Source: Escherichia coli
GTDB lineage: Bacteria; Pseudomonadota; Gammaproteobacteria; Enterobacterales; Enterobacteriaceae
Assembly: GCF_003991155.1 (NCBI RefSeq)
Contig: NZ_CP031293.1
Reading direction: 5' to 3' (one strand)
DNA: 64,000 bases
Under the pieces are notes generated by a model that was given only the letters and a program-made list of their open reading frames with translations, was not told the origin of the DNA and did no database searches. Of the stretch, positions 7,504-8,391 are shown piece by piece. How positions within the stretch are numbered: the first letter of the stretch is position 1; each line of letters starts with the position of its first letter. A program made the position numbers and the translations under genes.

Positions 7504-8391
7504 GTGGTACGGCGTTTAACTTCTCCGCGGCTCGAATTTGAAGCTGCGGCAATTTATGAATATCCCGAACATTTACGTTCATTCCTTAATGACTTACCCA
7601 CCCGACCAGGGGTGTATCTGTTTCATGGCGAAAGTGACACCATGCCGCTCTATATCGGCAAAAGCATTAACATCCGCAGCCGCGTCCTTTCTCATTTACG
7701 TACCCCGGATGAAGCCGCCATGCTACGGCAATCCCGGCGAATTAGCTGGATCTGCACCGCAGGCGAAATCGGCGCTCTGCTCCTTGAAGCGCGATTAATC
7801 AAAGAGCAGCAGCCACTGTTTAATAAACGGTTGCGCCGCAATCGCCAGCTCTGCGCCCTGCAATTAAATGAAAAGCGCGTCGATATGGTGTATGCCAAAG
7901 AGGTGGATTTTTCACGAGCCCCCAACCTGTTTGGCCTGTTTGCCAATAGGCGCGCAGCTTTGCAAGCATTGCAGACCATCGCTGATGAACAAAAACTTTG
8001 TTATGGCCTGTTGGGACTGGAACCGTTAAGCCGCGGTCGTGCTTGTTTTCGTTCAGCGCTTAAACGTTGCGCCGGAGCATGCTGCGGTAAAGAGAGCCAT
8101 GAGGAACATGCGCTACGCTTGCGCCAGTCTCTGGAGCGTTTGCGGGTGGTGTGTTGGCCTTGGCAAGGGGCGGTGGCGCTGAAAGAACAGCACCCGGAAA
8201 TGACTCAATATCATATTATTCAAAACTGGCTGTGGCTGGGGGCGGTTAATTCGCTGAAAGAAGCGACAACGTTAATTCGGGCACCCGCCGGGTTTGATCA
8301 CGACGGTTATAAAATTCTTTGTAAGCCGCTGCTTTCCGGGAACTATGAAATTACTGAACTTGATCCGGTGAATAACCAGCAAGCCAGTTGA
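7504..8391 (+). CDS. cho: excinuclease Cho (UvrC homologue, GIY-YIG nuclease)
   Basis: 295-aa ORF with GTG start; [32 protein letters not shown] motif. Confidence 0.9.

Follow-up and report, generated by a model that had tools for sequence, protein, structure and literature searches.

The genes cho (ydjQ) and ves (ydjR) of Escherichia coli converge on each other and share their last 41 bp, and we consider this arrangement to be, in all probability, an ordinary tail-to-tail overlap of two independent genes that was made by stop-codon drift. The pair was analyzed in a window of 64,000 nucleotides (i.e., the whole stretch of DNA, from contig NZ_CP031293.1, to which all positions refer unless another genome is named). 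The evidence comes from the reading frames and their annotation, from the protein ends in 80 species of Enterobacteriaceae, and from published transcript, 3′ end and dsRNA data placed on the window.

The overlap in sequence and annotation

The ORF listing and the raw sequence agree that the cho and ves ORFs share exactly 41 bp (TTACTGAACTTGATCCGGTGAATAACCAGCAAGCCAGTTGA), in a phase where codon position 1 lies opposite position 1, and the ves stop is a TAA read as the reverse complement of 8351-8353 on the minus strand (Table 1). The overlap had been described in the initial annotation with coordinates, length and both gene identities that all prove correct against the ORF listing and RefSeq. 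Indeed, an earlier stop was looked for in both genes and none was found in frame, the two stops being read straight from the sequence. Because each stop lies inside the partner gene, full-length cho and ves mRNAs must be complementary, and the claim that a full-length mRNA of either gene runs antisense to the partner's 3′ end is thus borne out. As for the other end of ves, its longest ORF runs up to a TTG at 8989, whereas RefSeq annotates the ATG at 8926; we favor the ATG since the published FliA promoter sits within the longer ORF.

Both genes are well identified, with NCBIfam equivalog matches of 576 bits for excinuclease Cho (NF007833, spanning residues 1-287) and 426 bits for Ves, and their orthologs align nearly to the end (80 Cho and 59 Ves sequences aligned). 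Pfam HutD covers residues 8-175 of Ves; a Pfam search with Cho gave no match at E = 0.01 or better, and a PDB search showed that Cho residues 23-111 resemble the GIY-YIG domain of solved UvrC structures.

RefSeq annotates the identical 41-bp overlap in K-12 MG1655 (cho 1823515..1824402, ves 1824362..1824937) as well as in strain 2016C-3878, whose sequence matches the window at 100% identity, and the 1.9-kb cho-ves locus was found in 5423 of 5426 complete E. coli genomes. As a pair of intact opposite-strand ORFs that end in common DNA, cho-ves is a convergent overlapping gene pair, a member of a well-described class, and the overlap itself is already known from the standard E. coli annotation and a published excludon catalogue. 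It should also be mentioned that positions 7300-9200 are 100% identical to E. coli 2016C-3878 and that only 41 of 5425 genomes reach at least 99% identity over this region, most being at ~97%, which points to the window representing either an uncommon lineage or a divergent allele of 7300-9200.

Table 1. Features of the cho-ves region, with positions in the window
Feature	Position	Strand	Remarks
LexA (SOS) box-like site, CTGGATAGATAACCAG	7473..7488	+	Pattern match, 16 nt upstream of cho start
cho (ydjQ), excinuclease Cho	7504..8391	+	GTG start, TGA stop 8389-8391, 295 aa
RNase III-cut 21-bp dsRNA in cho	8164..8184		U00096.2 1822198-1822219; ~170 nt past ves stop
Imperfect palindrome/hairpin	8346..8397		Centered on overlap, spans both stop codons
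Convergent coding overlap	8351..8391		Cho codons 283-295 + stop; Ves codons 179-191 + stop
ves (ydjR), HutD-family protein Ves	8351..8926	-	ATG start at 8926, 191 aa
Ves C-terminal extension, aa 186-191, SPDQVQ	8354..8371	-	Only in Escherichia/Citrobacter
Cho C-terminal tail, aa 287-295, DPVNNQQAS	8362..8388	+	Past conserved core
RNase III-cut 21-bp dsRNA in ves	8493..8513 (about)		U00096.2 1822527-1822548; ~100 nt past cho stop
RNase III-cut 22-bp dsRNA in ves	8780..8801		U00096.2 1822814-1822836; ~390 nt past cho stop; exact sequence match
FliA (sigma-28) promoter motif of ves, AACGTAAATCACCCGAGTTGCCGATAAC	8979..9006	-	Identical to Table 2 motif of Fitzgerald et al. 2014
First intrinsic-terminator-like site downstream of cho	9095..9119	+	Plus-strand face of spy terminator hairpin

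Protein ends and evolution of the junction

The 80-species alignment places the end of the conserved part of Cho at L286 (...YEIIEL; position 8361), after which 0-9 variable residues follow, and that of Ves at residue 185 (...SEItWLpGH; position 8372), with conservation ending at G184/H185. Hence the conserved cores do not overlap but lie 10 bp apart, and each tail is encoded on the last core codons of the partner. Within Escherichia and Citrobacter, Cho residues 289-295 are free to vary, whereas the Ves residues encoded opposite them (180-185) are kept, as would be expected if the Cho tail merely tolerates synonymous changes in Ves. In the Ves tail, S186, P187, V190 and Q191 are invariant in these two genera but lie opposite conserved Cho codons, so that the two constraints are inseparable. 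The structure model of Cho (mean pLDDT 77.6) has its last strand at residues 282-285 and falls below 50 for residues 290-295, and that of Ves, a low-confidence model overall (mean 62.6), has its last strand at 173-181. Both tails have low pLDDT and are likely disordered; weak constraint is clear for Cho residues 289-295 and may also apply to the Ves tail.

To follow the junction among relatives, one Cho locus per species was taken from 80 species of Enterobacteriaceae and both stop codons were located in each. In 58 of these species ves is convergent with and adjoins cho, and the junction then spans everything between a gap of 48 bp and an overlap of 45 bp. The 41-bp overlap is found in every Escherichia and Citrobacter locus with ves (18 loci, including the window); overlaps of 23 or 32 bp occur in Enterobacter, Lelliottia, Leclercia and Silvania, and overlaps of 15, 10, 7 or 4 bp in Kosakonia, Phytobacter and Franconibacter, while three loci overlap by 45 bp, one has a 3-bp gap and four have gaps of 28-48 bp. 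The stop positions thus differ among relatives: Ves of most genera ends with ...WLPGH at 185 aa, compared to 191 aa here, and Cho varies from 286 to 295 aa. The junction nevertheless remains tight (overlap or gap of at most 48 bp) in every species with ves beside cho, and this constancy, or the fixation of the 41-bp form across two genera, could reflect selection and not inertia.

The four loci with 28-48-bp gaps come from Enterobacter sp. ENT03, Pseudescherichia vulneris, Escherichia sp. ESNIH1 and the MAG UBA7338 (gap positions 3877-3904 in L050, 3877-3922 in L054, 3877-3924 in L055 and 3877-3922 in L065). A perfect G+C-rich hairpin of 12-15 bp, lacking T-tracts, occupies each gap (56-nt windows fold with -30 to -36 kcal/mol) and is possibly a REP-like or bidirectional stop element that was inserted. 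In the three loci with a 45-bp overlap (L039, L072 and L082, ~3829-3873), ves overlaps cho in another phase and the C-terminus of Ves is different and 15 residues longer (200 aa, ...SQVDDLSLAG), which is an independent extension event. Two assemblies look mislabelled or contaminated, since L039 (CACSKA010000006.1) shows a typical Enterobacteriaceae cho-ves locus on a contig titled Chryseobacterium sp. 18061, and L003 (DXKH01000113.1), a Citrobacter MAG contig, is 97% identical to E. coli cho. Finally, Salmonella, Klebsiella, Raoultella, Pluralibacter, C. sedlakii and Winslowiella have no ves beside cho, and the gene that cho faces there, ~90 bp away, is spy; at least Salmonella and C. sedlakii would represent ves losses, since Escherichia and most Citrobacter retain the gene.

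An overlap of 41 bp is no more than chance gives. Among the 41 long ORFs of the window, antisense frames in the phase of this overlap contain 0.05 stops per codon, with a mean run of ~20 codons, and the probability of meeting no stop in 9 codons is 0.63. In addition, 75 convergent overlapping pairs were counted in E. coli (Huvet & Stumpf 2014), and it is in the convergent orientation that genuine longer overlaps are tolerated (Palleja et al. 2008).

Transcription across the junction

The loose LexA pattern is common (29 matches in the window), and the assignment of the site upstream of cho relies on its position together with the listing of cho among the SOS genes with a known SOS box. The FliA motif of ves has a FAT score of 44 and a strong FliA ChIP signal, and ves expression was 18 in motile MG1655 compared to 0 in delta-fliA (Fitzgerald et al. 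2014). The initial annotation had paired SOS induction with cold shock, but the FliA promoter drives ves, and the natural counterpart of the SOS response is for this reason the flagellar regulon rather than cold shock. The broader idea of that annotation, i.e., transcriptional interference between an SOS gene and a stress gene, is a plausible hypothesis.

Since no intergenic DNA is left, there is no terminator between the two genes, and a scan of 8022-8746 found no terminator-like site overlapping the junction. No promoter-like site was found in or near the overlap either, with no sigma-70-like consensus on either strand of 7200-9800, which weakly argues for read-through from ves or cho as the simpler source of antisense RNA. 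The spy terminator hairpin (9047-9119) is terminator-like on the plus strand too, with a stem at 9095-9109 followed by AAGTTTTTTG, and would thus also halt cho read-through that has crossed all of ves; on the minus strand, the Term-seq 3′ end of spy lies at K-12 1825060, i.e., window ~9049 (Adams et al. 2021). The same study reports on the plus strand a Rho-dependent 3′ end at K-12 1823539 (window ~7528), 24 nt into cho, and a bicyclomycin-sensitive Rho region at K-12 1823784 (window ~7773), ~270 nt into cho, which suggests premature termination of cho transcripts. Its Term-seq tables contain no 3′ end at the overlap, both genes being weakly expressed there. In the other direction, read-through of ves yields RNA rich in C and poor in G at ~8033-8190, where Rho could plausibly load, as judged from this composition.

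Published RNA data cover both strands of the pair (Table 2). Over cho, antisense RNA exceeds sense RNA; in the rnc mutants cho mRNA shows no increase and ves mRNA one of at most 1.6-fold (Huang et al. 2020). Because RNase III loss hardly alters either mRNA, a strong effect through dsRNA decay is unlikely under those conditions.

Table 2. Sense and antisense reads (RPM) in the wild type and two rnc mutants (Huang et al. 2020, Table S1c)
Gene and strand	WT	rnc-14	rnc-38
cho sense	7.9	6.4	5.7
cho antisense	19.2	22.0	34.6
ves sense	157	173	245
ves antisense	4.7	1.8	8.6
nadE (neighbor) sense	120	81.2	18.7
nadE (neighbor) antisense	2.1	0.94	1.9

The RNase III-cut dsRNAs of the same study (Table S3, U00096.2 coordinates) were placed on the window by sequence, the window differing from K-12 at two bases within the site at 8493..8513. 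Their positions imply that complementary RNA extends at least ~170 nt into cho and at least ~390 nt into ves, so that the complementary region is hundreds of nucleotides long and not 41. The pair also figures among the 165 convergent excludons listed for MG1655, with detection in 50% or more of 58 transcriptomes, by ExcludonFinder (Sanmartin et al. 2025), whose criterion takes any pair with overlapping covered transcripts and is satisfied almost automatically by an overlap at the CDS level.

The stop positions and the published RNA data together give cho-ves the structural half of the excludon definition, i.e., opposite-strand neighbors with overlapping transcripts, and one may ask whether the arrangement was selected so that cho (SOS) and ves (FliA/stress) exclude each other through polymerase collision and/or RNase III cleavage of the duplex. 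A selected excludon would agree with the missing terminator, the entry in the E. coli excludome, the excess of antisense over cho with dsRNAs cut in both genes, and the tight junction kept in 58 species. However, the entry in the catalogue is near-automatic for such overlaps, the rnc mutants leave cho sense RNA unchanged and ves little changed, the length of the overlap is unconserved, ves has been lost repeatedly, and a strong hairpin separates the genes in four lineages. In addition, both genes are weakly expressed, so that collisions would be rare. To our knowledge, Cho and Ves have no functional link, which also counts against selection for mutual exclusion. We consequently regard a selected excludon as unlikely.

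Described excludons (Sesto et al. 2013; Sanmartin et al. 2025) share with cho-ves the adjacent genes on opposite strands, the overlapping transcripts and the RNase III-cut dsRNA, but classical excludons overlap via long UTRs, whereas here the overlap begins in the coding regions; moreover, classical cases show reciprocal expression of functionally opposed genes, while cho-ves is known by its transcript overlap, with little effect of rnc mutations. Neither cho nor ves is mentioned in the SMRT-Cappable-seq supplements or in a survey of transcriptional interference (PMC10349824), and a search of the literature for ydjQ together with ydjR found no paper.

A more specific variant would make FliA-driven ves transcription, unterminated before cho, an antisense brake on Cho, with the hairpin at the overlap setting the point where the polymerases meet. 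Cho expression after DNA damage would then be lower in motile (FliA-on) cells, and the flagellar and SOS regulons would be functionally coupled via a coding-sequence excludon; we hold this brake to be decidedly improbable.

The hairpin at the overlap

The palindrome at the overlap folds with -14.1 kcal/mol on the plus strand and -17.9 kcal/mol on the minus strand. It could in principle act as a bidirectional terminator, or as a stem-loop that positions collisions, and so define the 3′ ends of both mRNAs. Several observations favor such a role: compared to shuffled sequences the hairpin is significantly stable (z = -3.2 and -4.1), it is centered on the overlap and covers both stops, 84% of cells are paired in Escherichia and Citrobacter with a covariation of 0.139 vs 0.102 in shuffles (1 of 500), and a stem-loop is reported as a requirement for programmed head-on collisions at convergent pairs (Wang et al.). 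Against real genic windows, however, its stability is ordinary, since among the 56-nt windows of cho and ves it stands at the 32nd/10th percentile in this DNA and, in K-12, at the 56th/28th, and in most other genera it is unstable and nothing special. It is A+T-rich and imperfect, no T-tract stands beside it and an inverted-repeat search with seed 6 saw none at the overlap; a G+C-rich stem-loop with U-tracts on both strands, as a bidirectional intrinsic terminator has, is thus lacking. Both arms encode protein, which alone accounts for their conservation, and the palindrome is in part a consequence of the similar codons at the ends of the two proteins (Cho GAA ATT..., Ves GAA ATC AAC TGG...). 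Finally, antisense RNA and dsRNAs extend well beyond the hairpin, and Term-seq shows no 3′ end at it, although expression is low. An embedded terminator was therefore rejected and a defining role of the palindrome for the 3′ ends is, in our judgment, very unlikely; the hairpin is rather a by-product, with a small residual chance that it positions polymerase collisions in the way Wang et al. describe.

Bidirectional, collision-driven termination in E. coli (Ju et al. 2019; Wang et al. 2022 preprint) resembles cho-ves in concerning convergent genes without canonical intrinsic or obvious Rho terminators and with a stem-loop at the gene ends. In contrast to those elements, which lie between gene boundaries, the weak hairpin of cho-ves lies inside both ORFs, is unconserved beyond Escherichia and Citrobacter, and is passed by the transcripts.

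In two loci, L009 and L016 (Citrobacter sp. MGH106 and C. gillenii, ~3848-3888), the overlap hairpin is far stronger: ACTGGATCCGG...CCGGCATCCAGT pairs near-perfectly (-26 to -30 kcal/mol) and ranks with the top 0.2% of minus-strand windows. An Rfam scan of 7000-9900 identified no known RNA in the overlap. In the nadE-cho spacer it gave a near-threshold match to the ES036/CssrF sRNA at 7354-7396 on the plus strand (36.2 bits vs a gathering score of 37.6) and a weak match to the REP-derived naRNA4 at 7314-7350 on the minus strand, so that 7314-7396 looks like a REP-type element between nadE and cho.

Origin and significance of the overlap

Long convergent overlaps are sometimes mispredicted 3′ extensions (Palleja et al. 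2008) and both tails are poorly conserved here, but an annotation artefact in which one protein actually ends earlier is virtually impossible, and was rejected, since the stops are unambiguous, independent of the choice of start, without an earlier in-frame stop and the same in 18 species, and since 41 bp is below the 60-bp length where artefacts dominate (Palleja et al. 2008).

Stop-codon drift in two independent genes would account for the arrangement as follows. The genes probably lost their spacer, leaving the two conserved cores almost in contact, and each frame would continue as a short, weakly constrained tail across the last conserved codons of the partner until the first in-frame stop. 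RNA polymerase exiting either gene would then run antisense into the other, where Rho probably stops it later, and this long antisense read-through is forced because the intergenic terminator was lost. The two mRNAs would pair over no fewer than 41 nt and in reality over hundreds, with some of the dsRNA formed being cut by RNase III. During ordinary growth, the FliA-driven ves transcript would be the stronger partner and the source of most antisense RNA over LexA-repressed cho. We infer that the antisense RNA is read-through and that its net regulatory effect is small.

Such a history fits the convergent overlapping pairs described before (Rogozin et al. 2002; Palleja et al. 2008; Huvet & Stumpf 2014), which likewise consist of intact unrelated genes on opposite strands with common 3′ ends, show a C-terminal extension compared to orthologs, and vary in overlap length between related genomes. 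Nothing essential differs, although the 41 bp of cho-ves are longer than the commonest overlaps of a few bases and are stable across two genera.

Altogether, cho-ves provides a clean textbook example of how genes whose conserved cores lie 10 bp apart come to overlap by way of disposable C-terminal tails. Taken by itself, the overlap matters little; functional interference, if it were shown, would connect a backup nucleotide-excision nuclease (LexA) with the control of motility and stress (FliA), and thus bring a modest addition to SOS regulation.
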